Assembly: GCA_000830275.1 (NCBI GenBank)
Contig: CP010424.1
Location: 1,170,001 to 1,202,000 of the forward strand
DNA length: 32,000 nt
Direction: 5' to 3'
DNA from: an archaeon GW2011_AR10
GTDB lineage: Archaea; Iainarchaeota; Iainarchaeia; Iainarchaeales; GW2011-AR10
The notes beneath the pieces were generated by a model that saw nothing but the letters and a program-made list of their open reading frames with translations, did not search any database and was not told the DNA's origin. This document shows positions 1,535-30,110 of the stretch, one piece after another; position 1 is the stretch's first letter; each line of letters begins with the position of its first letter. Position numbers and translations under genes: made by a program.

Positions 1535-2173
1535 GTGGTTCAGGGTTTTTCAGAGGAACAGAAAAGGATTGCCGTTAGCCTGCTTCACGGCCCGAAAACA
1601 AGCGAGGAGCTAAACAAGCAGCTCAACATTGCATTCAACGAGCTCAACAAAGAGTTAAACGCCATGCTTAAACTGAAAGTAATCACTAAAAGCGGTTACC
1701 CTCTCCGTTACTCGCTGAAGCCCGAAATTGAGAAAGAGGTCAGGCGCAGAAAGGACCTCTCAGAGGAAGATGACTTCAGGCTGAGAGTAAGAGCCATCGT
1801 TGACGTTCAGACAATTGAAGAGGCACTAGCAAAAAAGTCTTTGGACGAGGTTGAAAAAGCCCTGAGAAAAGACAAGGACTTCACTATTTATGACATAACA
1901 AAGGCAGAGCCAATACAGCAGGGAGAGCACTTCACAAGCTACATGGAGGCAGACCTATCGGTTAAGGACTTCAAGGCACTTGTAAAGCTAATGTACTTTT
2001 ACGGGCCCACCACAATCGAGGTTATCAGGCCAAAGAAACTAGAGTTAAGCCTGGATGACTTGCAGGAAGGCCTCATGGAAATGGCTGAAATGATTCAGGC
2101 ATACAACTATCACATCCTTAAAATGATGAGCAAAAAGGAACTCGAGGATTTCCAGAAAAAGCTCTTCTCTTAA
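1535..2173 (+). CDS. Hypothetical protein with an N-terminal winged-helix-like segment
   Basis: 212-aa ORF with a GTG start 4 nt after AGGTGA. The N-terminus QKRIAVSLLHGPKTSEELNKQL...LKVITKSGYPLRYSL looks wHTH-like. The rest is unrecognised. Confidence 0.55.
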   Translation: MVQGFSEEQKRIAVSLLHGPKTSEELNKQLNIAFNELNKELNAMLKLKVITKSGYPLRYSLKPEIEKEVRRRKDLSEEDDFRLRVRAIVDVQTIEEALAKKSLDEVEKALRKDKDFTIYDITKAEPIQQGEHFTSYMEADLSVKDFKALVKLMYFYGPTTIEVIRPKKLELSLDDLQEGLMEMAEMIQAYNYHILKMMSKKELEDFQKKLFS

Positions 2174-2187
2174 GCTGTGTTAAGCCA

Positions 2188-2295
2188 GAGCTTTACCAAA
2201 ACGTGCTTTTCGGCAAAAACCTTTTAAGAAAAGGTTTACCAAAAAGAGCTTTTCGGCAAAAAACGAAAAAACTGCCTTCTTTTAAAGCCTTCGAT
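2188..2295. repeat. Family-2 short-hairpin concatemer, copy H
   Basis: GCTTTTCGGCAAAAACCTTTTAAGAAAAGGTTTACCAAAAAGAGCTTTTCGGCAAAAAAC... contains the AAACCTTTT-AAG-AAAAGGTTT hairpin and a repeated GCTTTTCGGCAAAAA unit. Confidence 0.8.
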
Positions 2296-6230: not shown

Positions 6231-6356
6231 CTGCTTTAGAGGCGGGGCATAACAAGGAAAGCAAGCTTTTTTTGCTCTGAATGGCCTCGTTTTTCTGGTT
6301 TTAACACTGTTTTTTTCATATTTTATGGGGCACTTTATATAAATAAGGCCATTTAT

Positions 6357-6436
6357 CAGCCTTTTAGGAAAAGGCTGGCGAAAAAAAGCCTACGGCAACA
6401 GCCTTTTAAAAAAAGCCCGTCGAAAATGCGCCTTCT
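6357..6436. repeat. Family-2 short-hairpin concatemer, copy I
   Basis: CAGCCTTTT-AGG-AAAAGGCTG, then GCC-TAC-GGC, then a second AGCCTTTTAAAAAAAGC unit. A TATA-like CTTTATATAAATAA lies at 6333-6346 just upstream. Confidence 0.75.
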
Positions 6437-6541
6437 GCTGGTTGTTTCTGGTTTCTCTCGCTTCTCTCGTCCCTTAGCTGGTTTTTCCTTCAATAAGCCG
6501 AATTCAAACAGTTAATTCCACTGTTTTTAAGCAGTGCGACG

Positions 6542-6826
6542 CTATAGTATATGGCAAAATGCTTTTGTGTTTGAACAAATAGCGAATGACTTTAATAATG
6601 GTAAAAAGCAAGTCATTCGCTATAGCAAAACGCTTAAGTAATTGAACATTGAATTGCGTTTTGCATCTAGCAAACAGCAGTATACAGTTCAAAAATATTG
6701 GCTGTTTGCTATAGTCGCAAAAGACATTAAGAAATTACCGAAACTAATGTCTTTTGCTAAAAAAATTGCATTTTGCATTTAGCAAACAGCAAATTAAATT
6801 TTCAAGAATCAAAGCTGTTTGCTATA
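6542..6826. repeat. Family-1 composite element, copy C (about 285 bp, 6-7 modules)
   Basis: Modules at 6580-6624 (GCGAATGAC/GTCATTCGC), 6621-6666 (GCAAAACGC/GCGTTTTGC), 6668-6713 (GCAAACAGC/GCTGTTTGC), 6714-6759 (GCAAAAGACAT/ATGTCTTTTGC) and 6780-6826 (GCAAACAGC/GCTGTTTGC), plus half-modules. Nearly identical to 26007-26283. Confidence 0.9.
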
Positions 6827-8185: not shown

Positions 8186-8859
8186 CCTTGAATCGTTATC
8201 TGCTTGCTGGTTTGATTACTCTCGCAATATTGGGGGTTGTTTTTGGGGCGGTCCTGCTTTTAGATGACTGGCGGGTTTCAGGCATAAACAAAGACCTTGA
8301 AGATTTGAGCATTCAATCAGAGTCCAACAGAGTGCTTTTCTTTTATAACCAAGTTTTTGATCCCGCCGAAAACCCGCGGTTCTGTGAACTAGCCAACTCG
8401 AGCGCTACTCTCCGCTCCAACCAAGGAGACCTGCTTTTTGCAAAACTCGAAAACTATGAAGGCGCCAGTTTCTTTGGCAGTTACAGAATTCTGCGGCAAA
8501 AATACCTGCTTAACCGCATTGAACTGTGGCTTTTTACAACGCTTCAAAACAAAACCTGTGGAAGCAATTTTGTGCCGGTCTTGTTTTTTTATGAATCTAC
8601 TGTTGATTGCCCGGAATGTTTAGTGCAGGGAAACATTTTGGAAGAGCTCCGAAACCAATGCCCAAATGTAAAGATTTTTGCTTTGTCCGTAGATGAAGAA
8701 ATAGATTTAGTGCCTTTAATTCAGTCCCAGTTCAATGTTTCGACTGTTCCTTCCTTGGTTGTGGACAACCAATTTGTTTTTGAATCCTTAACCACTAAAG
8801 AAGAAATCTTAAGAAATATTAAATGTGAAGAAGTCATAGCGAAACGAATAGTTGTTTGA
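8179..8859 (+). CDS. Membrane-anchored thioredoxin-fold protein (CPEC motif)
   Basis: 226 aa. N-terminal TM LLAGLITLAILGVVFGAVLLL. VLFFYESTVDCPECLVQ...STVPSLVV matches a CxxC thioredoxin/glutaredoxin-like layout. Overlaps the GT2 stop by 7 nt. Confidence 0.55.
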   Translation: MVTLNRYLLAGLITLAILGVVFGAVLLLDDWRVSGINKDLEDLSIQSESNRVLFFYNQVFDPAENPRFCELANSSATLRSNQGDLLFAKLENYEGASFFGSYRILRQKYLLNRIELWLFTTLQNKTCGSNFVPVLFFYESTVDCPECLVQGNILEELRNQCPNVKIFALSVDEEIDLVPLIQSQFNVSTVPSLVVDNQFVFESLTTKEEILRNIKCEEVIAKRIVV

Positions 8860-8864
8860 CAAAT

Positions 8865-9005
8865 GGCGTTTTGCAACCAGCCAATAAAAGTTCAAGAATT
8901 AAAGCTGTTCGCTATATAGTAAAAGACATAAGTATTTACACAATAATTGTCTTTTACATATAGCAAGCGACAATAAATGTCTAAATATTAATGTCGCTCG
9001 CTATA
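8865..9005. repeat. Family-1 hairpin modules, cluster D (about 3 modules)
   Basis: Half-module GGCGTTTTGCAAC, then ...GCTGTTCGCTATA, then TAGTAAAAGACAT/GTCTTTTACATATA (8917-8962), then GCAAGCGACA/TGTCGCTCGC (8961-9005). Lies between convergent genes. Confidence 0.85.
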
Positions 9006-13925: not shown

Positions 13926-14633
13926 CTATTTCTTTTCCCCTTGCCTGCCCTCTGCTTTTGGCTCGGCCTTCTTTTCCCCGGCTTTCGCTTCCTCTCCACT
14001 CTTCTTCTTTTCTCCCTTTGCTTCCTCAGCGCCCCCAGCCTTCTCTTCCTCTTCCTTTGTTTCAGCCTTTGTTACCTTAATCTTCCTAGGCTTTGAGCCA
14101 ATTGACTTAACATCGGTGTGAACAACAACATCCAAACCAAGGGGCATTCTTGCATTTGCCCTAAGCAACGCGGTTTTAGCGGCTTCAATGTTGGCTTCAT
14201 CCACCAGCACGCTCATCATTTTCTGTCCCGGCCTAACCCTAACGGCTCTTCCAATTACTTTTCCGAAAGAGTGGCTCATTCCAGTGCTGATTCTGTCAGC
14301 TCCAGCTCCCTGAGCCTGCTTGTTTTCCCTCAGCAGCTGGTGGGGGTAAACCCTGATTTTCATGAAGTAGCCGTCCTTACCAAAATTGTTATGTAGAAAT
14401 CTGTTGATTGCTATTCTGCTTGACTCAATTGCGTTGTCCCTTACCTGCACTTTTTCTTTTGCAACAAGGTCAAGGATGTGAGAGAACTCTTTTAACGGGT
14501 TACCCATGTTGAACTGCCTTGTCTTAAGGCCCGGAGCAGCGCCTACATAATTCTTTCTATGCACCTTGACAGCGAGCCTCGTGTATGCCCTGTCCTTGGT
14601 TGAACTATAGCAGTGCCCTGGCCTTAAACCCAT
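13926..14633 (-). CDS. rpl10e: Ribosomal protein uL16 (L10e) with a ~50-aa Lys/Glu/Ala-rich C-terminal tail
   Basis: N-terminus MGLRPGHCYS...AYTR...GAAPGLKTRQFNMGN is typical of L10e. The tail is KAETKEEEEKAGGAEEAKGEKKKSGEEAKAGEKKAEPKAEGRQGEKK. Confidence 0.9.
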   Translation of the reverse strand: MGLRPGHCYSSTKDRAYTRLAVKVHRKNYVGAAPGLKTRQFNMGNPLKEFSHILDLVAKEKVQVRDNAIESSRIAINRFLHNNFGKDGYFMKIRVYPHQLLRENKQAQGAGADRISTGMSHSFGKVIGRAVRVRPGQKMMSVLVDEANIEAAKTALLRANARMPLGLDVVVHTDVKSIGSKPRKIKVTKAETKEEEEKAGGAEEAKGEKKKSGEEAKAGEKKAEPKAEGRQGEKK

Positions 14634-14666
14634 TCAAATCACTGAAGCAATTAAACCCTAAAAAAT

Positions 14667-14758
14667 TATAGCAAAATGCTTGTGTGTTTGAACAAAAACT
14701 GCATTTTGCAACTAGCAAACAGCAAATTAATGCTCAAAAATCAAAGCTGTTTGCTGTA
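14667..14758. repeat. Family-1 hairpin modules, cluster E (2 modules)
   Basis: TATAGCAAAATGC/GCATTTTGCAAC (14667-14712) and TAGCAAACAGC/GCTGTTTGCTGTA (14713-14758). Lies immediately upstream of rpl10e. Confidence 0.85.
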
Positions 14759-14805
14759 GAGCAATCCTATAATACTCTTCAATTGCAATCATTTTTAAGG
14801 CTTTA

Positions 14806-15007
14806 GGTAAACCTTTTAGGAAAAGGTTTGCGAAAAAGTGCCTTCGGCCAAAACCTTTTAAGAAAAGGTTTATCAAAATGGGGCTGCGCCGAAAACCTTT
14901 TTAGAAACCCAAGCAAAATCATAGATTTTGCGGGCCTCGCAAAACCAAGGGTTTTGCAAGGAGTTTTATCAAAAAGTGCCTTCGGCTGAAAACTTTTAGG
15001 AAAACTT
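14806..15007. repeat. Family-2 short-hairpin concatemer, copy J (longest copy)
   Basis: Consecutive hairpins AAACCTTTT-AGG-AAAAGGTTT, GCC-TTC-GGC, AACCTTTT-AAG-AAAAGGTT, GGC-TGC-GCC, GCAAAATC-ATA-GATTTTGC, GCAAAACC-AAG-GGTTTTGC and GCC-TTC-GGC. Positions 14895-14995 align with 18775-18870. Confidence 0.85.
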
Positions 15008-15240
15008 TAACGTGTTACCCGCAGAAAACCACCATTAGGCAGGCGCCTGTAAAGAATGTAAGAGAGAGGGCTCCTTACTTTATCTGCCCTCACCATGCCG
15101 CCACTCCTTGTTCTAACATAGTAACTGCGCAAATTAATGGGGGCTGGCCTGCGCTGCGGCCTAAAATAGGGTTGTGCTGTAGGTCTGGCGAAAGGTTGGC
15201 CTCTCCTAACAGGCTTTCTCGGCAGCAAACGCAATGGCAT
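15007..15240 (-). CDS. Hyper-basic 77-aa ORF (Arg/Pro-rich); coding status uncertain, a structured RNA is an alternative
   Basis: MPLRLLPRKPVRRGQPFARPTAQPYFRPQRRPAP... There is no SD. A TATA-like TTTTATTAA lies about 25-30 nt upstream of the ATG on the minus strand, consistent with either a leaderless mRNA or an RNA 5' end. The segment is visibly more GC-rich than its flanks. Confidence 0.35.
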   Translation of the reverse strand: MPLRLLPRKPVRRGQPFARPTAQPYFRPQRRPAPINLRSYYVRTRSGGMVRADKVRSPLSYILYRRLPNGGFLRVTR

Positions 15241-15303
15241 ATGAAAAGAAAAAGTTCTTTGAAGTTAATAAAACTGATGGTACTAGAATACCTGCACCAA
15301 CTG

Positions 15304-15645
15304 TCAGCGAATCATTTTTTCTAAGCCTGCGTTCTGTGGTGCAAACGGAAACTGCATTTTTTCCGCGGAAGCAGTGCGCTTTTTCTCAAAAAAGGAGCGC
15401 AGTTCCTCCCAGAGTTCTTTTCCCTGCTTTTGTGAAAGCGTCTTGATTATTGTTGGTTCTGGCTGCGCGTATCTAACAAGTACAAAGTCGTTTTCTTTCA
15501 CTGCCTCGTTAAGGCTTGGGTGCACTAAAACAATAACCTGATTTTCGTCCCACATCTCGCACCGTGCCTGAACCGAATTGTCAGCTGAAACAATGCCTTT
15601 GTCTGAGGACTTCAACAGTTTAATGACTTTTCCAAGGTGGTACAT
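15304..15645 (-). CDS. Hypothetical protein
   Basis: 113-aa ORF with no recognisable motif. Confidence 0.45.
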   Translation of the reverse strand: MYHLGKVIKLLKSSDKGIVSADNSVQARCEMWDENQVIVLVHPSLNEAVKENDFVLVRYAQPEPTIIKTLSQKQGKELWEELRSFFEKKRTASAEKMQFPFAPQNAGLEKMIR

Positions 15646-16641: not shown

Positions 16642-16706
16642 TAGAAAAGCTTGACCAAAAGAAAAAGCACTAATTTTTGATAAATTTGCGGCCTATTGCT
16701 TTGCAA

Positions 16707-16904
16707 TATAGCAAAATGCTTAAGTAATTGAACATTGAATTGCGTTTTGCATCTAGCAAACAGCAGTATACAGTTCAAAAATATTGGCTGTTTGCTATAG
16801 TCGCAAAAGACATTAAGAAATTACCAAAAATAATGTCTTTTGCTAAAAAAATTGCATTTTGCAACCAGCAAATTAATGCTCAAAAATCAAAGCTGTTTGC
16901 TGTA
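16707..16904. repeat. Family-1 composite element, copy F (deletion variant of C and G)
   Basis: Same module order as 6621-6826, with only a couple of substitutions over ~150 bp. It lacks the GCGAATGAC module. Its first module is a chimera (5' arm GCAAAATGC, 3' arm GCGTTTTGC). Confidence 0.9.
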
Positions 16905-16944
16905 GGTAAAAAGGTTTGCGTTGCATTTGGCTGCAAACGAAGAG

Positions 16945-17101
16945 AGCTGAGGATGGGAGTCGAACCCATCTCTTCCGCTTACAGCAACCAAAAGCTGCAA
17001 AAGACAGCTTTCTTTTGCTTTCTTTTGCTTTCTTTTGTAAACTTTTCTTTTCTAAAGAAAAGTTTCTGCAGGCGGATGCATGGCCGATCTGCCACCCCAG
17101 C
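16945..17101 (-). tRNA. tRNA-Cys (anticodon GCA) with an 86-nt intron at the canonical 37/38 position
   Basis: Hand-folded on the minus strand. Acceptor GCTGGGG/CCTCAGC (one G-U). D arm GCA-GATCGGCCA-TGC. Anticodon stem TCCGC/GCGGA with loop CTGCAGA. 4-nt variable loop. T arm ATGGG-TTCGACT-CCCAT. Discriminator T, no encoded CCA. Exons are 17066-17101 and 16945-16979; the intron is 16980-17065. Confidence 0.85.
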
Positions 17102-17271: not shown

Positions 17272-18192
17272 ATGGAATGTTCCTGTATGAATGAGCAGGA
17301 ATGCGTGCTTTTGAAGACTTCTCCTGAAATATCCCTTAAAACCCATTACGTGAGAAGATACTTCACTGAAAAACTTGTTTCCAACATTAAAACTGTTTTG
17401 AGGCAAAACAAGCTCAGTGGCACTGAGGTCAGAAAAAAACCCGGCAGGCTGTTAATTTACTCTGAGAAAAAAAAGCTCCCGAAAATCGGCAAATTGATGG
17501 AAAACATTTTCGGCGTTACTTCAGTTGCGTTTGCCAACAAAATTGGTTCAGTTGAAAAAAGCGAAATAATTCTTGAAGCAGTAAAGCTAGCGGGGATGCA
17601 TTTTAGTGAAATGGACTCTTTTGCGGTCAGGGTTAAAAGGCACGGCACTCACCATTTCTCTTCAAAGCAGCTCGAGGAGGAAATAGGTTCAGCAATAAAC
17701 CAGAAAATTAACGGGTTAATTGTTGACTTGACTTCTCCAAGCAAAGAGCTGTTTGTTGAGGTCAAGGATCTTGAAACATTTTTTTACACTGAGGAAAGCC
17801 CTGCTGCAGGCGGGCTGCCTTTAGGCTGTGAAGGCAATGTTGCAGTTGAATTCCTTGGGAGAAAAGAGGAGCTGCTCGCAGCTTGGCTGATGATGAAGCG
17901 GGGCTGCAATGTTTTTCCGCTTGTGGAAAAGAAAACCAAAAAAATTGAATCACACATCAATAAGTTGAGGAAATGGAATTCTTTCAGGAAATTCAAGCTC
18001 ACAGAGTTGCAGGACAAGAAAGACTTGCTTGAAAAAAAAGATATTGCGGTAAAGGCAATAGTGAAGGCAGACACTGTTTTCTCACGAGAATTTGTTGCGG
18101 AGAAAAAAAGGCAGCCAGTGCCTGTCTTCTGGCCACTTGTTTTTTACCCTGAGGAATTGTTTGAACGCGATATAAAGAAGGTGCTAGGTTGA
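17272..18192 (+). CDS. ThiI-like THUMP-domain protein with a degenerate PP-loop domain
   Basis: LLKTSPEISLKTHYVRRYFTEKLVSNIKTVL (ThiI N-terminal style), a THUMP-like middle, then GGLPLGCEGNVAVEFLGRKEELLAAWLMMKRGCNVFPL, where the expected SGGxDS is replaced by LGRKEE. Short C-terminus. ATG at 17272. Confidence 0.6.
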   Translation: MECSCMNEQECVLLKTSPEISLKTHYVRRYFTEKLVSNIKTVLRQNKLSGTEVRKKPGRLLIYSEKKKLPKIGKLMENIFGVTSVAFANKIGSVEKSEIILEAVKLAGMHFSEMDSFAVRVKRHGTHHFSSKQLEEEIGSAINQKINGLIVDLTSPSKELFVEVKDLETFFYTEESPAAGGLPLGCEGNVAVEFLGRKEELLAAWLMMKRGCNVFPLVEKKTKKIESHINKLRKWNSFRKFKLTELQDKKDLLEKKDIAVKAIVKADTVFSREFVAEKKRQPVPVFWPLVFYPEELFERDIKKVLG

Positions 18193-18980
18193 TTAAAGGC
18201 GTTGTGTTTGATTTGGATGGCGTTATAGTCAACACTCCGGACATTTACTTTAAGACAATGAAGGAATATATTAGGGGGCACTCAGTCAAAGTAAAGGATG
18301 AGGATGTGTCCAAGCTAATTGGCTACTCGTTGAGGGACGAGCTAATGCTGATAAACCAGAAATATGGCCTCAATATTGAACTCTCTGAATTTGTTTCAGT
18401 TGTTCTCTCCAAGTCAAGGAAACTGATGGAAAAAGAGATGAAGGTCAATGATGGTTTTACTGAACTGCTTTCAGAACTGAAGGAAAACCGCTTCAAAACA
18501 GCTGTTGCCTCAAACAATGTTCCTTCAACAATTGATTTCATTCTGTCAAAGTACGGTTTCCTTGAGTCATTTGATGCAATTGTTGGAGCCGACGATGTGA
18601 AGCATGGAAAGCCCAGCCCTGAAATATACATTAAAGCAGTTGAAAAGTTGGGTTTGAAGAAAGAGGAGTGCATCGCAATTGAGGACACTTTAATAGGGTT
18701 AAAGGCAGTCAGTGCAGCTGGCCTTAAATGCATTGCTTTTCCAAACAAGTTCACTAACGGCCAAAACCTTTTAAGCAAACCCAAGCAAAATCATGGATTT
18801 TGCGGGTCTCGCAAAACCAAAGGTTTTGCAAGGAGGTTTGCGAAAAGTGGCCTTCGGCTAAAACCAAAGGTTTTACGAGGAGGTTTGCGAAAACGCAGCT
18901 CCGCCAAAAACCTTTTCGGAGCAGTTTTAACAATCGGGAGCCTCACTGAATTGAATTCAGGGGTAATAAGGGGGCTTTAA
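18189..18980 (+). CDS. HAD-superfamily hydrolase (beta-phosphoglucomutase/phosphatase-like, subfamily IA) carrying an in-frame repeat insertion near the C-terminus
   Basis: VVFDLDGVIVNT (motif I), VASNN (II), KHGKPSPEIY (III), IAIEDTLIGLKAVSAAG (IV). TTG start overlaps the upstream stop (TTGA). Residues ~193-240 are encoded by the family-2 repeat. Confidence 0.8.
   Translation: MIKGVVFDLDGVIVNTPDIYFKTMKEYIRGHSVKVKDEDVSKLIGYSLRDELMLINQKYGLNIELSEFVSVVLSKSRKLMEKEMKVNDGFTELLSELKENRFKTAVASNNVPSTIDFILSKYGFLESFDAIVGADDVKHGKPSPEIYIKAVEKLGLKKEECIAIEDTLIGLKAVSAAGLKCIAFPNKFTNGQNLLSKPKQNHGFCGSRKTKGFARRFAKSGLRLKPKVLRGGLRKRSSAKNLFGAVLTIGSLTELNSGVIRGL
18761..18916 (+). mobile_element. Family-2 repeat copy K inserted in frame within the HAD hydrolase CDS
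   Basis: Bounded by near-identical direct repeats CCAAAACCTTTT (18761-18772) and CCAAAAACCTTTT (18904-18916), whose ends are 144 bp apart. The interior aligns with intergenic copy J (GCAAAATCATGGATTTTGC, GCAAAACCAAAGGTTTTGC, GGCCTTCGGCT). Confidence 0.7.
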
Positions 18981-25956: not shown

Positions 25957-26006
25957 TTACAAATAAATGAAAGAAACAGGTAATTAACTTTTCTTTTCAC
26001 AGAATA

Positions 26007-26283
26007 TATAGCAAAACGCTTATGTATTTGAACAAATAGCGAATGACTTTAATAATGGTAGAAAACAAGTCATTCGCTATAGCAAAACGCTTAAGTAATT
26101 GAACATTGAAACTGCGTTTTGCATCTAGCAAACAGCAGTATAAAGTTCAAAAATATTGGCTGTTTGCTATAGTCGCAAAAGACATTAAGAAATTACCAAA
26201 ACTAATGTCTTTTGCTAAAAAACTGCATTGCAACCAGCAACAGCAAATTAAATTGTCAAAAAAAATTAAAGCTGTCTGCTGTA
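26007..26283. repeat. Family-1 composite element, copy G (about 277 bp)
   Basis: Collinear with 6542-6826. By eye there are only about half a dozen differences over the central ~190 bp. Lies between the aIF1A stop and the rio1 start. Confidence 0.9.
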
Positions 26284-27475: not shown

Positions 27476-28087
27476 ATGAAGCAAGAAAATAATCTGGCGT
27501 TTCAAATAATTTTTTTTCTATCTGTTTTGCTAATTATAGTTTCCTTGTTTCTTTTCCTAAGCGATAAGCCGCAGTTTTTTTCAGAAATGGTGGACGAGTA
27601 TGGCTTGCTGGGGCTGTTTATTGGGGCAATAATTGGCACTTCCACGATTTTGCTGCCTTTGCCAATTGATGTTGTTATAGCGCTTGTTGGGGCAGAACCA
27701 AGCATTGTAGGGTTAGAGGGTTCGCTTCCGAATTTGATAGTAATTGGATTGATTGCCGGGTTAGGCGCAGCAATAGGTGAAATGACTTCTTACTTGCTCG
27801 GGTTAATGGGAATGAAAGCAATTGAAAAAAACTTTGAAAGCGTGATTCTAAAAAAAATTGATGAAACAAGGGAAAGGCTGAACAAGAGCGGCATTTTTTT
27901 CATTTTCATTGCCTCTGCCACTCCAATTCCTTTCGATTTGGTTGGAATAGTGGCAGGCCTAATAAAGTACTCCCCGACAAAATTCTTCATAGGTGCCTTA
28001 ATAGGAAAAGTTTTTAGGTATGTTCTGCTTGCCTTCGCCGGTTTTTACGGAATAGGCGCCATTAAAGGAATCTTTTTTCTCCCCTAA
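27476..28087 (+). CDS. Polytopic membrane protein, DedA/YqaA (VTT/SNARE-associated) like
   Basis: About five hydrophobic helices. The LPLPIDVVIALVGA motif resembles the VTT-domain re-entrant loop. ATG at 27476. Confidence 0.5.
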   Translation: MKQENNLAFQIIFFLSVLLIIVSLFLFLSDKPQFFSEMVDEYGLLGLFIGAIIGTSTILLPLPIDVVIALVGAEPSIVGLEGSLPNLIVIGLIAGLGAAIGEMTSYLLGLMGMKAIEKNFESVILKKIDETRERLNKSGIFFIFIASATPIPFDLVGIVAGLIKYSPTKFFIGALIGKVFRYVLLAFAGFYGIGAIKGIFFLP

Positions 28088-28467
28088 AGCGCTGTTGAAT
28101 GCTGTTGCATGATTCACAGAAACAATCAGCTAAAAACTGGCGGCATCAGTTCTTAGCATCCTCATCATCCTTGCGTCATCAGGTGTTAACCTCATTAATG
28201 TTTGAATTTTGGTGGGTTATGACACCCGCTTTAACCCCTGTTCCGGCCTCCATTTTGTAAATAGAATATAAATAATTCACATTAAAATTGTTGCTCTCAC
28301 GTTCAAGAACGAAGCAAAACACGGCACGGAACAAAGGCAAGAATAAGCCAAAAGCTCTTTACCTGGCAGAATTTATCTTTATAAAGAAATTATCTTTTCT
28401 TGTTGAATTGTATAAAGTTTTATTAAACCTATTCTTGTAAGATAATTAATCTGGAGGGTTGTTATTT

Positions 28468-28605
28468 ATGTGGGGGATAAAATCAAAGAAAGGTTTTGCT
28501 TTTGCATTTTACGCTTTCTTTGTTTCAAGTATCTTTTTTATAACAAAAAATAAATTAAAAAAGACCAAGCCAGAAAAAATATTTACGGCCAGTTCTTTGA
28601 GTTGA
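28468..28605 (+). CDS. Possible 45-aa single-TM peptide
   Basis: ATG 8 nt after GGAGGG. MWGIKSKKGFAFAFYAFFVSSIFFITKNKLKKTKPEKIFTASSLS. Below the ORF-track size cutoff. Confidence 0.3.
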   Translation: MWGIKSKKGFAFAFYAFFVSSIFFITKNKLKKTKPEKIFTASSLS

Positions 28606-28611
28606 TTTCAA

Positions 28612-29028
28612 ATGTTTGTGAAAAAAGAACAATTTATTGCTGTGTTTTTGGTGGTTTTTGCAGTTGCTTTATTGTTTCTTAGTGGTTGTTTGGAAAAGAC
28701 TTGTTTTAACCGTGCTGACTGTCCTTTAAGCGATTCCGAGTACATTCAAATCGCAAAAACAACTTCGGAAGCACAAGCATTCCTGCAAAAATATCCTGAT
28801 GCAAACATTGGGGTTGAGAGAACTGAATACTTGGCAGTTGACTTTATAAAAAATAAGTCAGGTGAAAGCACTATTGTTCCACCTTACTTGCGATTAAGAG
28901 TTTTTATAAACACTTCAACGAACAAGCCAGCGTCAGCTTTCATAGAATGTAACCTCACGGGTGACAACTATTCAAGAATAGACCAAGACATTGTTAATTA
29001 CATAAAAATAGAAAAATGTTTAGCATGA
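28612..29028 (+). CDS. Putative lipoprotein (hypothetical)
   Basis: Signal peptide with lipobox: FLVVFAVALLFLSGC. 138 aa. No family recognised. Confidence 0.5.
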   Translation: MFVKKEQFIAVFLVVFAVALLFLSGCLEKTCFNRADCPLSDSEYIQIAKTTSEAQAFLQKYPDANIGVERTEYLAVDFIKNKSGESTIVPPYLRLRVFINTSTNKPASAFIECNLTGDNYSRIDQDIVNYIKIEKCLA

Positions 29029-29509
29029 ACTAGCTCCCTTTCTTTTTCTTTTTTTTCTAATTTTTTGCCGAAATAAAAAAATTATTCAGAGGGAATCAGA
29101 GTTGAGTTAAATCATCATTCCCGTTGAGGGGTCAGAAGGTCTTAACTTCATCCCGCGCCTTCCTAATACTCTGTTTTTGAATGTGTTTAAAACCCTTTTT
29201 TTGGTCACTCGGAAGTGAGGCTTGTTTTTCAGTTCTCCATCAATTCTGCATTGTCCGGATTCTCGGGCGCAGACAAATATTTCAGGTAAGCCGTGATTTT
29301 TGAGTTCTAAAAGGATCTGTTTTGCGTATGTTTATTTCAAATAGTTCACATAAAGAAAGCGGGTTTTTCCAATTAGCCGGTTTTTTTGGAATTGGTGTCA
29401 TCGCCCTCCACTTTTCAGACTATAACCTCATCATCGTCTGCAGTAATTTATAGAGATTATTGCTTTAATTCTTTGCTTTTTTTTATATTCTGTTAAAGTG
29501 GTTTTTCAT

Positions 29510-29679
29510 ATGGGTAAAGAAAAAAATGGAAAGTTGTTATTTCAGAGAATGTTGTAAAGAAGATGGAAATGCTGCCTGAAAAAGACCAGAAAAAACTAAT
29601 GAATGCAATGGAAAAACTAGCTGAAAACCCTTATGCCGGCAAATCATCAAACAATTTAAATGGTTACGCTATAACGTAA
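29510..29679 (+). pseudogene. RelE/ParE-type toxin remnant (frameshifted in an A-run and C-terminally truncated)
   Basis: ATG GGT AAA G-A8 shifts frame into WKVVISENVVKKMEMLPEKDQKKLMNAMEKLAENPYAGKSSNNLNGYAIT*. This resembles the first half of RelE/ParE toxins and stops before the conserved C-terminal catalytic half. A TATA-like TTTTTTTTATATT lies upstream. Confidence 0.45.
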
Positions 29680-30110
29680 CCCTATTTAAATGCTTAAAAA
29701 GGGTTTGACTGGGTTAAGGCTAACAAAAGGCAGCGTAAATGTTAGTCTAAATCTTTGTGCTGGTTAGGCTGATAAGTGGCAATAACTTCCTTAGCCTAAC
29801 TGTCTGCCCAAACTTTCGAAAACTTTTTTCTTTTTCGGACAAGCCGCTTAATTTTGCATTACTACTCTTTTCTTTGCTCTAAAGCCAAATAGTTTGTATA
29901 AAATCCAAATTTCTTCCTATGGCAACGCTCAAAATACTGGTGCTAACAACTACGCTTTTTGCGAGGATGACCTCATAATCGCCTACTGTGATGTATAAGG
30001 ATTATTCCTTAAAATTAACGGTTTTTTGCAGAGAGCAACGTTCACCTAATCCAAGTAAAATTTATAATCTGGTAGCGCCTTTTATTCTTAAAATGAAAGG
30101 AGGTGAAATT

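Follow-up and report, generated by a model that had tools for sequence, protein, structure and literature searches.

Tandem arrays of tri-loop hairpins in an Iainarchaeota genome as a candidate archaeal counterpart of interspersed palindromic repeats

Among the described families of palindromic repeats, the Rickettsia palindromic elements (RPEs), attributed to Ogata and colleagues in 2000, are said to be selfish repeats inserted in frame in protein-coding genes. For repetitive extragenic palindromes (REPs) and bacterial interspersed mosaic elements (BIMEs), excerpts of two accounts propose roles in mRNA 3'-end stability and termination (PMC2817692, PMC3733652), and in an excerpt of the latter the REP palindrome carries a conserved tetranucleotide, GTAG or CGTC, at its 5' foot (PMC3733652). 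In Haloferax, 503 mapped RNA 3' ends were found to be preceded by hairpins, and a reporter showed 59% termination for one of the hairpins (PMC7237163), while the part of another study that concerns us describes archaeal termination as following U-tracts (PMC8716108). Here we compare these systems with Family 2, a group of concatenated short hairpins in a 32,000-nt stretch of the genome of the archaeon GW2011_AR10 (GCA_000830275.1, contig CP010424.1, positions 1,170,001 to 1,202,000), which is referred to as the window. We consider it somewhat probable that Family 2 consists of interspersed hairpin-forming DNA repeats, as an archaeal counterpart of REPs and BIMEs or of RPEs, and not of noncoding RNA genes. 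This assignment fits best because a composite unit is dispersed, one copy is inserted in a gene and another occupies an intron, the family is absent from a relative, the number of units varies and units appear to have undergone conversion.

Composition, dispersal and insertion of the hairpin arrays

The original prediction of four loci composed of back-to-back short hairpins was accurate with respect to both their content and their coordinates (Table 1, arrays 1 to 4), and the hairpins exceed chance by far. Perfect hairpins with a stem of at least 7 bp were listed 36 times compared to a mean of 13 in dinucleotide shuffles, an about threefold excess that is mostly contained in the Family 2 loci. 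The 21-nt palindrome AAACCTTTT-ARG-AAAAGGTTT is found at three sites in the window (0.01 expected) and the pattern GCAAAAYC-NNN-GRTTTTGC at four (0.16 expected). Individual versions of the hairpin include AAACCTTTT-AGG/AAG-AAAAGGTTT (14809-14829, 14851-14871 and 2217-2237), CAGCCTTTT-AGG-AAAAGGCTG (6357-6377), GCAAAATC-ATA/ATG-GATTTTGC (14913-14931 and 18785-18803) and GCAAAACC-AAG/AAA-GGTTTTGC (14939-14957 and 18811-18829), accompanied by the mini-palindromes GCC-TTC-GGC (at 14841, 14979 and 18850), GCC-TAC-GGC (at 6388) and GGC-TGC-GCC (at 14883). In a typical unit, a hairpin of 9 bp with a 3-nt purine loop, termed hairpin A, is followed by a linker of GCG, ATC or ACC plus AAAA(A)G and a 3-bp mini-hairpin (GCC-TTC-GGC). 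A second type of unit contains the bulged hairpins CCC-AA-GCAAAATC-ATR-GATTTTGC-GGG and CTC-GCAAAACC-AAR-GGTTTTGC-AAG-GAG, which carry the loops ATA and AAG in array 3. The latter array terminates in the degenerate unit AAAACTTTT-AGG-AAAACTTT. Units follow each other with a period of 42 nt (14809-14907) or 47 nt (18813-18912), and every unit of every array shares one orientation, with all four window arrays residing on the plus strand. As single strands, arrays fold better than shuffled sequences, with z-scores of -3.3 and -3.95.

The census of copies encompassed 50.6 kb of the source genome, consisting of the window joined to its flanking sequence. As anticipated, it revealed an additional copy in form of a fifth array, which lies on the opposite strand 6.2 kb before the left edge of the window and sits antisense to PriS, 50 nt upstream of the start of this gene. 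Array 5 is 91% identical to array 4 (18760-18906) over 138 nt. The segments 14888-14991 and 18760-18863 of arrays 3 and 4 share 83% identity over 104 nt without gaps, and 93% over 73 nt in a BLAST alignment. A composite of about 140 nt with four units is thereby present in three copies (14888-15007, 18760-18906 and array 5) that are 91-94% identical. Overall, the 50.6 kb contain five arrays with about 20 hairpins (palindromes of 19-27 nt), one of them intragenic, and nhmmer searches with the composite and the 42-nt unit found no other copy in this sequence beyond a weak half-unit (16643-16660). With patterns that far exceed chance and further copies at hand, the concatenated tri-loop hairpins constitute a real repeat family. 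The arrays are placed in different surroundings. Array 1 begins in sense orientation 15 nt past the stop codon of an MJ0538-family gene (1535-2173, plus strand), array 2 is found 127 nt beyond a stop codon and past several T runs, and array 3 is antisense to both of the minus-strand genes on its flanks (L10e with its start at 14633 and a 113-aa gene with its stop at 15304).

The insertion of a copy in a gene is best illustrated by array 4. The HAD-family hydrolase encoded at this locus contains about 48 extra residues, equivalent to about 48 in-frame codons, which lie exactly over the array. Its six nearest homologues (215-218 aa) lack the insert, their alignment being confined to residues 1 to about 192 and the final 19 or so, and the conserved C-terminus, including an invariant Ala, resumes past the array. 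The sequence AAAACC, which marks the start of a unit in the tandem array, is found at both ends of the insert. Since stop codons are missing from two sense frames out of three in every array, an in-frame insertion that is tolerated by the host protein appears plausible. The relative L093, which is syntenic in this region (THUMP-HAD-Mre11, L10e, Dph2), carries the 215-aa form of the hydrolase and shows no family-type hairpins in 20.6 kb. A metagenome scan for orthologous loci employing the Mre11-like neighbour retrieved two distant relatives only, both without family hairpins. In this respect, array 4 behaves as repeated DNA that has landed in a gene and not as a conserved RNA gene. As in RPEs, an in-frame and stop-free insert in a conserved protein is found alongside noncoding copies elsewhere.

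Another hairpin of the family type resides at the start of the intron of a tRNA gene. This gene was missed by ARAGORN with default settings and appears once introns are allowed, where it is labelled as tRNA-Ser(GCT). Splicing at the canonical position 37/38 leads to a tRNA-Cys(GCA) of 72 nt, which is of type I, with a short variable loop and U73. The intronic hairpin and the ACAAAAG sequence behind it follow the same grammar as hairpin A plus tail, and comparable units are found in tRNA introns of two other archaeal loci (L004 and L047). The intron of tRNA-Cys additionally holds three tandem AAAGCAAAAG repeats. It had been proposed that at least one copy is transcribed, and because one copy sits in an open reading frame (ORF) and another in a tRNA intron, at least two of them must be.

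Close strains differ in the arrays. Strain L095 contains one additional unit in array 5. In the second unit of array 2 (6399-6440), a comparison of 99.5% identical strains reveals six clustered substitutions, through which the degenerate unit becomes a good hairpin matching the adjacent one. This pattern is conversion-like and the difference would reflect a transfer from the neighbouring unit. Separately, the segment 6450-6490 just downstream of array 2 carries nine substitutions over 40 nt, against a background of 99.5% identity of the strains, which in the alignment has the appearance of a local hypervariable or recombined stretch.

Table 1. Coordinates of Family 2 arrays and other features. 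Positions refer to the window; negative numbers lie to its left.
Feature	Position	Strand	Description
Array 1	2188..2295	+	half-unit (AGCTTT-ACCAAAACG-TGCTTTTCGGCA), then hairpin A 2217-2237 (AAACCTTTT-AAG-AAAAGGTTT), ACCAAAAAG linker, mini-hairpin, degenerate tail
Array 2, both units	6357..6440	+	CAGCCTTTT-AGG-AAAAGGCTG + GCGAAAAAAA + GCC-TAC-GGC as the first of two 42-nt units
Array 2, unit 2	6399-6440	+	degenerate unit; good hairpin in strain L095
Array 3	14806..15007	+	two type-A units (14809-14850, 14851-14892), then composite copy of ~140 nt (14888-15007)
Array 4	18760..18906	+	composite copy, four ~47-nt units; last partial unit may extend to about 18925
Array 5	-6324..-6193	-	divergent region between PriS and cation-ATPase genes
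HAD-family hydrolase gene, host of array 4	18189..18980	+	263 aa; homologues 215-218 aa
Intron-containing tRNA gene	16944..17101	-	86-nt intron 16980-17065; tRNA-Cys(GCA) when spliced at 37/38
Family-type hairpin AAACTTTTCTTT-AGA-AAAGAAAAGTTT + ACAAAAG	17039..17065	-	first 27 nt of tRNA intron, RNA sense
Possible solo half-unit (GAAAAGCTT-GACCAAAAG)	16643..16660	+	right after stop of 123-aa gene; weak match, E = 0.28
TATA-like box CTTTATATAAATAA	6333..6346	+	11 nt upstream of array 2; judged from sequence only
Family 1 elements	1425-1590, 6548-6826, 8852-8925, 14667-14767, 16707-16913, 26005-26283		

The hairpin-plus-tail module in other archaea

For a comparison with other genomes, we searched for the exact 21-mer AAACCTTTT-ARG-AAAAGGTTT in one genome per species and obtained 84 stretches, in which genes were called as simple ORFs. 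Archaeal hosts comprise ANME-1/Methanophagales, other metagenome-assembled genomes (MAGs) of Methanobacteriota, Syntrophoarchaeum, Methanocellales, Methanosarcina, Iainarchaeota/Diapherotrites, Micrarchaeota, Nanoarchaeota and Woesearchaeota, and the hosts cover at least nine lineages overall. Seventeen of the stretches are bacterial with unrelated flanks, and 13 of these represent one repeat at contig ends of a single Clostridiales bin. In this MAG (ERR1305899-bin.49), the identical 21-mer is located at a distance of about 50 nt or less from many contig ends within an unrelated conserved repeat (aaattatagtttgacg...AAACC...aaaaatctaaattggtaaaccgcaattcgg, eleven loci) that breaks the assembly, and the match appears coincidental. 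A C(N)AAAA tail within 10 nt of the hairpin on the strand carrying the ARG loop was found in 58 of 68 archaeal matches, compared to none of the 68 on the other side and none of the 17 bacterial ones. Since the tail was absent from the search pattern, it is an independent conserved feature, which together with the hairpin AAACCTTTT-ARG-AAAAGGTTT defines a polar module whose polarity is kept across lineages.

The related loci also provide information on the persistence of single units. The closest of the genomes compared, the Candidatus Iainarchaeum MAG L041, shares a syntenic block with 55-70% protein identity, which places the source organism among DPANN archaea in the Iainarchaeota/Diapherotrites group. 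At the site orthologous to array 1, where protein identity is about 57%, it contains a degenerate unit straight after the stop codon (TAA-ACCGGTT-AACCAAAAG-GTGG..CCAC). Behind its S-layer gene, a hairpin-plus-tail unit is placed between the stop codon and a terminator hairpin, whereas the window there has the terminator hairpin only. At an orthologous site of two other Iainarchaeota (L017 and L024), hairpin A is kept and the second hairpin replaced, and in Micrarchaeota four to six tandem hairpins with differing but perfectly paired stems are located behind tRNA genes. Taken together, the loci show both turnover and positional preference. Rfam searches of 18 related loci returned tRNAs and one RNase P RNA only, a scan of viral contigs with the hairpin resulted in two matches and no sign of a viral origin, and searches by motif string and by topic found no published description of this element. 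Two arrangements deserve separate mention. Behind a tRNA-Ile(TAT) gene (L019, 2463-2600), a 38-nt hairpin segment sits between direct repeats of 14 nt from the tRNA 3' end (CCCGGACCCATCAG), and the arrangement resembles a target duplication or an att-like remnant. In ANME-1, Syntrophoarchaeum and related MAGs (eleven loci), the module is part of longer multi-copy elements with apparent inverted ends (gacacagattaacgcagattaacaca ... tgtgttgcgtaaatc...). These elements hardly differ in sequence between MAGs of ANME-1 and of Syntrophoarchaeum and look like a miniature transposable element with inverted repeats (MITE) shared across orders.

The original prediction had further assigned compensatory changes to the stems, and this claim was upheld in part. 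Stems remain paired where they differ, and in an alignment of the six 42-nt window units and one strain variant, 90% of the cells are paired and three pairs are changed on both sides. However, these double-sided changes (AAA/TTT to CAG/CTG and GCC/GGC to GGC/GCC) amount to only about two independent events in the window. An extra change from C-G to T-A separates GCAAAACC/GGTTTTGC from TAAAACC/GGTTTTA. Because conversion alters both arms together without selection on RNA, it can mimic compensatory evolution. Stronger structural evidence comes from a comparison of six modules from DPANN genomes, a small set chosen by eye, where the second hairpin keeps an (A/G)TAAA loop, five of seven pairs change on both sides and none of 500 shuffles reaches the score. 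A linker-anchored test of hairpin formation was dropped as confounded, since the loci had been pre-selected for containing the hairpin. What could not be sustained is the implied family of structured RNA genes under compensatory evolution: its members are spread over a 3' untranslated region (UTR), the promoter region of a divergent gene pair, an antisense position between two genes, a coding sequence and an intron, the family is absent from the syntenic relative L093, and the strain difference is a conversion patch.

The placement of the module relative to genes bears on a different reading, which we regard as unlikely but serious, namely that it serves mainly as a functional RNA element of transcript 3' ends, with odd placements as by-products. 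Such an element would aid termination, define the 3' end or block 3'-to-5' exonucleases, and arrays would represent consecutive 3' ends. In line with this proposal, 10 of 61 intergenic matches are located in sense orientation within 20 nt past a stop codon compared to 2.0 expected (a fivefold excess, p = 3e-5), with only about one antisense match equally close, and the TAA stop is frequently fused to the AAACC of the hairpin. Similarly, tRNA and RNase P RNA genes are followed by the module at a distance of 3-25 nt, as exemplified by a hairpin that begins 3 nt after the RNase P RNA gene (L044) and by sense arrays behind tRNA 3' ends in five loci (L026, L069, L020, L047 and L054). The conserved polarity and the unit retained in the orthologous 3' UTR of L041 point in the same direction, as do the hairpins in Haloferax, which precede mapped 3' ends and can terminate transcription (PMC7237163). 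Conversely, T runs in Family 2 are only 3-4 nt long, whereas archaeal termination, in the part of the source referred to above, tracks the U-tract (PMC8716108). Of the six placements, array 3 is antisense to both neighbours and array 5 lies in a divergent promoter region, and the copies in the coding sequence and the intron reside where termination would be harmful. Array 2 is found downstream of T7/T5/T7 runs that are already terminator-like, and the overall orientation of matches relative to the upstream gene is only 36:24. Finally, a scan for terminator-like sequences detected 34 cases compared to 25.3 +/- 5.2 in shuffles, which is not an enrichment, and did not flag hairpin A. A role at 3' ends and membership in a repeat family are not mutually exclusive.

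In a more far-reaching version of this proposal, which seems to us quite unlikely, the module would be a conserved archaeal cis-signal for 3'-end formation of mRNAs and stable RNAs that is read by a conserved factor, and the dispersed arrays in this DPANN genome would be the result of a runaway expansion. The 3' signal of metazoan histone mRNAs is cut by CPSF73, whose archaeal homologue aCPSF1/FttA is a general termination factor. The layout of the module, in which ACC/AUC and a stretch rich in purines come after a stem-loop directly behind the stop codon, recalls this metazoan signal. With its location next to the 3' ends of genes and stable RNAs in ANME-1, Methanosarcina, Methanocellales and several DPANN phyla, the module is a concrete candidate cis-element for 3'-end formation or mRNA stability, which both are poorly understood in archaea.

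A proposed interspersed repeat family and its alternatives

The sequences show that Family 2 is repeated and dispersed, that a copy is inserted in a gene, that its presence depends on the lineage, that strains differ in a conversion-like manner, and that the module is polar and widely distributed. In the reading of Family 2 as interspersed repeats, the building block is a perfect palindrome of 19-27 nt, composed of A(3-4) and a pyrimidine run, a purine tri-loop, and a purine run with T(3-4). It is followed by an A-rich tail (AYC/GCG + AAAA) and usually by a second small G+C hairpin with a freely varying stem. Such modules are joined head to tail with periods of 42-47 nt, and arrays as well as the four-unit composite of about 140 nt have been copied to unlinked sites. 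Copies would persist where extra sequence is tolerated, namely directly past stop codons, within intergenic DNA distal to promoters, within a tRNA intron and, in one case, in frame within a coding sequence. Gene conversion or template switching could homogenise units within and between arrays, and this, combined with the requirement of some hairpin-recognising factor for pairing in the stem, would keep the arms complementary. As for the copying mechanism, our guess is a strand-specific, hairpin-recognising enzyme of the HUH/Y1 type acting in trans, as for REPs and the ends of the insertion sequences (IS) IS200/IS605, and many copies may have been co-opted as 3'-end hairpins of transcripts.

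Several observations weigh against this reading. There is no transposase or gene resembling REP-associated tyrosine transposases (RAYTs) near any copy in the 50.6 kb, and a tblastn search of about 0.5 Mb of related loci with an approximate IS608 TnpA query detected a single IS200/IS605 TnpA-like ORF, which is located 1.5 kb from a hairpin (in L042) and does not establish a systematic link. The termini (AAAACCTTTTAAG... and ...GCGAAAACGCAGCTYCGC) of the three copies of the composite are not inverted relative to each other, and terminal inverted repeats are absent. Neither did we find a target-site duplication or a direct repeat common to the flanks of the five arrays. Between close strains, no pair of empty and filled Family 2 sites was encountered, as all four window arrays are fixed in strains of 99.6-100% identity. 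The presence of the same grammar in nine lineages, the fivefold sense enrichment behind stop codons and the adjacency to tRNA and RNase P RNA genes argue for a host function over pure selfishness, and the degenerate unit behind the MJ0538-family gene is kept in L041. Moreover, exact identity to a single hairpin served to collect the related loci, so that their statistics apply to this hairpin instead of the family as a whole. As defining features of REPs/BIMEs and of MITEs are absent or were not seen in the examined sequence, we have filed the family under no named group.

A further proposal, in which the arrays are independent small-RNA genes with promoters of their own, we hold to be very unlikely. 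TATA-like boxes are indeed found in sense orientation 11-45 nt upstream of the three arrays that are not directly behind a gene (at 6333-6346, as ATTTTTAAGG at about 14790 and as AAATTTTAAATC upstream of array 5), TTTTAAATTAATT is present about 15 nt upstream of the hairpin in L017 and L024, and the folding z-scores amount to -3.3 and -4.0. However, although the TATA-like box that had been noted before array 2 exists, the usual spacing would place the start site inside the 5' arm of the first hairpin, which compromises its assignment as promoter. TATA-like strings are abundant in AT-rich intergenic DNA, and arrays 1 and 4 lack such a box. The content of units varies by locus and the family is absent from the syntenic relative. 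In agreement with the expectation that no known RNA family would be found, Rfam 15 yields no match at gathering score in the whole window, and a search by E-value of 14600-15350 gave chance-level matches only (E at least 0.16, far below gathering scores).

The weakest proposal, in which the repeats would act at the level of DNA without mobility as cruciforms, intrastrand triplexes or as arrays of nucleoid or regulatory sites for protein binding, and in which the purine arm of the hairpin would be mirrored by the purine tail, strikes us as highly improbable, since the match of the linker purine run with the purine arm (mean 4.25 compared to 4.04 +/- 0.04 when permuted, not reached in 1000 permutations), the abundance in bacteria of intrastrand triplex motifs consisting of a pyrimidine arm, loop, purine arm, loop and purine arm (PMC4666352), and a GCAAAAY half-site in common with Family 1 repeats are offset by mirror and direct matches that are indistinguishable in low-complexity purine runs, by a tail whose A run in arrays is the start of the next hairpin, by an awkward geometry with three A:T pairs of opposite polarity at the stem foot, and by the lack of a known binding protein. 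We have also rejected a CRISPR array (units abut with linkers of 7-10 nt and there are no unique spacers), a core promoter with the T-rich strand as TATA box (the distance to downstream gene starts is 58-500 nt), an intrinsic terminator (hairpin A has only two G-C pairs followed by TTT(T)A, compared to a G+C-rich stem and at least five T) and a noncoding RNA in the G+C-rich stretch 15008-15260, which shows no folding signal.

Neighbouring features and comparison with known systems

The window sequence is identical to contigs from several metagenomes and to GCA_013332025.1, and its genes include those of the archaeal housekeeping proteins L10e, eRF1, TruD, Topo VI, RIO1 and eIF1A and of an S-layer protein. 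A second group of repeats, Family 1, consists of elements of about 90-170 nt with two long-loop hairpins bounded by TATAGCAAAAYGC ... GCTGTTTGCTATA. Their ends precede the start codons of the genes at 1535, 6827 and 14633 (minus strand) by about 0-35 nt, and the sequence of these ends may include outward-facing TATA boxes. Family 1 adjoins a Family 2 array twice and shares the half-site GCAAAAY/RTTTTGC with its hairpins. A 147-nt stretch (26059-26205), one of a tandem pair of Family 1, is missing from the 99.97% identical contig DUFG01000016.1, which from the alignment appears to be a presence/absence polymorphism of a Family 1 copy. Other variable features concern the margins of the window. 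The MJ0043_C-family gene that spans its start (at about 117, minus strand) encodes 423 aa in the window strain and 870 aa in strain L095, where it contains a strain-polymorphic intein of about 1.3 kb (Intein_splicing and LAGLIDADG domains), and Topo VI subunit B of L093 likewise bears an intein. A strain contig (L097) matches the window only from about 28164 on, with different genes to the left. The region 28000-30000 has the lowest G+C content of the window (0.355) and short ORFs only, and this stretch next to the breakpoint may be a variable island.

Dispersed repeats are unexpected in the very small genomes of DPANN archaea. The entry into a coding sequence and a tRNA intron suggests that selfish or semi-domesticated hairpin repeats operate there too. 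In practical terms, such arrays extend or break ORF calls as in the HAD gene, hide an intron-containing tRNA and fragment assemblies.

With MITEs and the IS200/IS605-derived palindrome-associated transposable elements (PATEs), Family 2 shares a small size, a noncoding and structured nature and multiple copies, and in ANME-1 the module is found inside longer multi-copy elements with apparently inverted ends. The T-rich strand, with TTGAT followed by a hairpin, resembles what we take to be the target-plus-left-end layout of ISDra2-type elements. In contrast to these systems, the window arrays lack terminal inverted repeats and target duplications, no partner IS is present in the examined sequence, and the spacing between hairpin and tag differs from that of IS608 and ISDra2 ends. 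The archaeal hairpin-assisted termination sites equally place a hairpin close behind the stop codon, with an A run and a T run on its flanks, and in Haloferax many mapped 3' ends are preceded by hairpins (PMC7237163). In Family 2, however, T runs have a length of 3-4, and its hairpins are repeated, dispersed and also found in intronic, coding and antisense positions.

RPEs differ from Family 2 in that there is no sequence relationship, and the resemblance is functional only. They form one long palindrome instead of tandem mini-hairpins, and Family 2 has so far revealed one intragenic copy. What both have in common is a palindromic repeat of about 100-150 nt, found between genes and as an in-frame, stop-free insertion that adds a peptide segment. 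Compared to REPs and BIMEs, the units of Family 2 share one orientation whereas the REPs of BIMEs alternate, and the tag is an A-rich 3' tail (AYC/GCG-AAAA, corresponding to TTTTGAT/TTTTCGC on the other strand) and not a 5' GTAG/CGTC. Its stems are A/T-rich with 3-nt loops, one copy is intragenic and the host belongs to DPANN, and whereas REPs are mobilised by RAYTs, no RAYT was found in the 50.6 kb. Family 2 appears to resemble REPs as short palindromes (20-40 nt) in many copies that are clustered into composites, mostly just behind genes, and shares with them a stem that is kept while its sequence drifts and a short conserved tag on one side that confers polarity. Also typical of REPs are a polar tail and a preferential placement at the 3' ends of genes; in the excerpts cited above, REPs are both mobile and used at the 3' ends of mRNAs (PMC2817692, PMC3733652).

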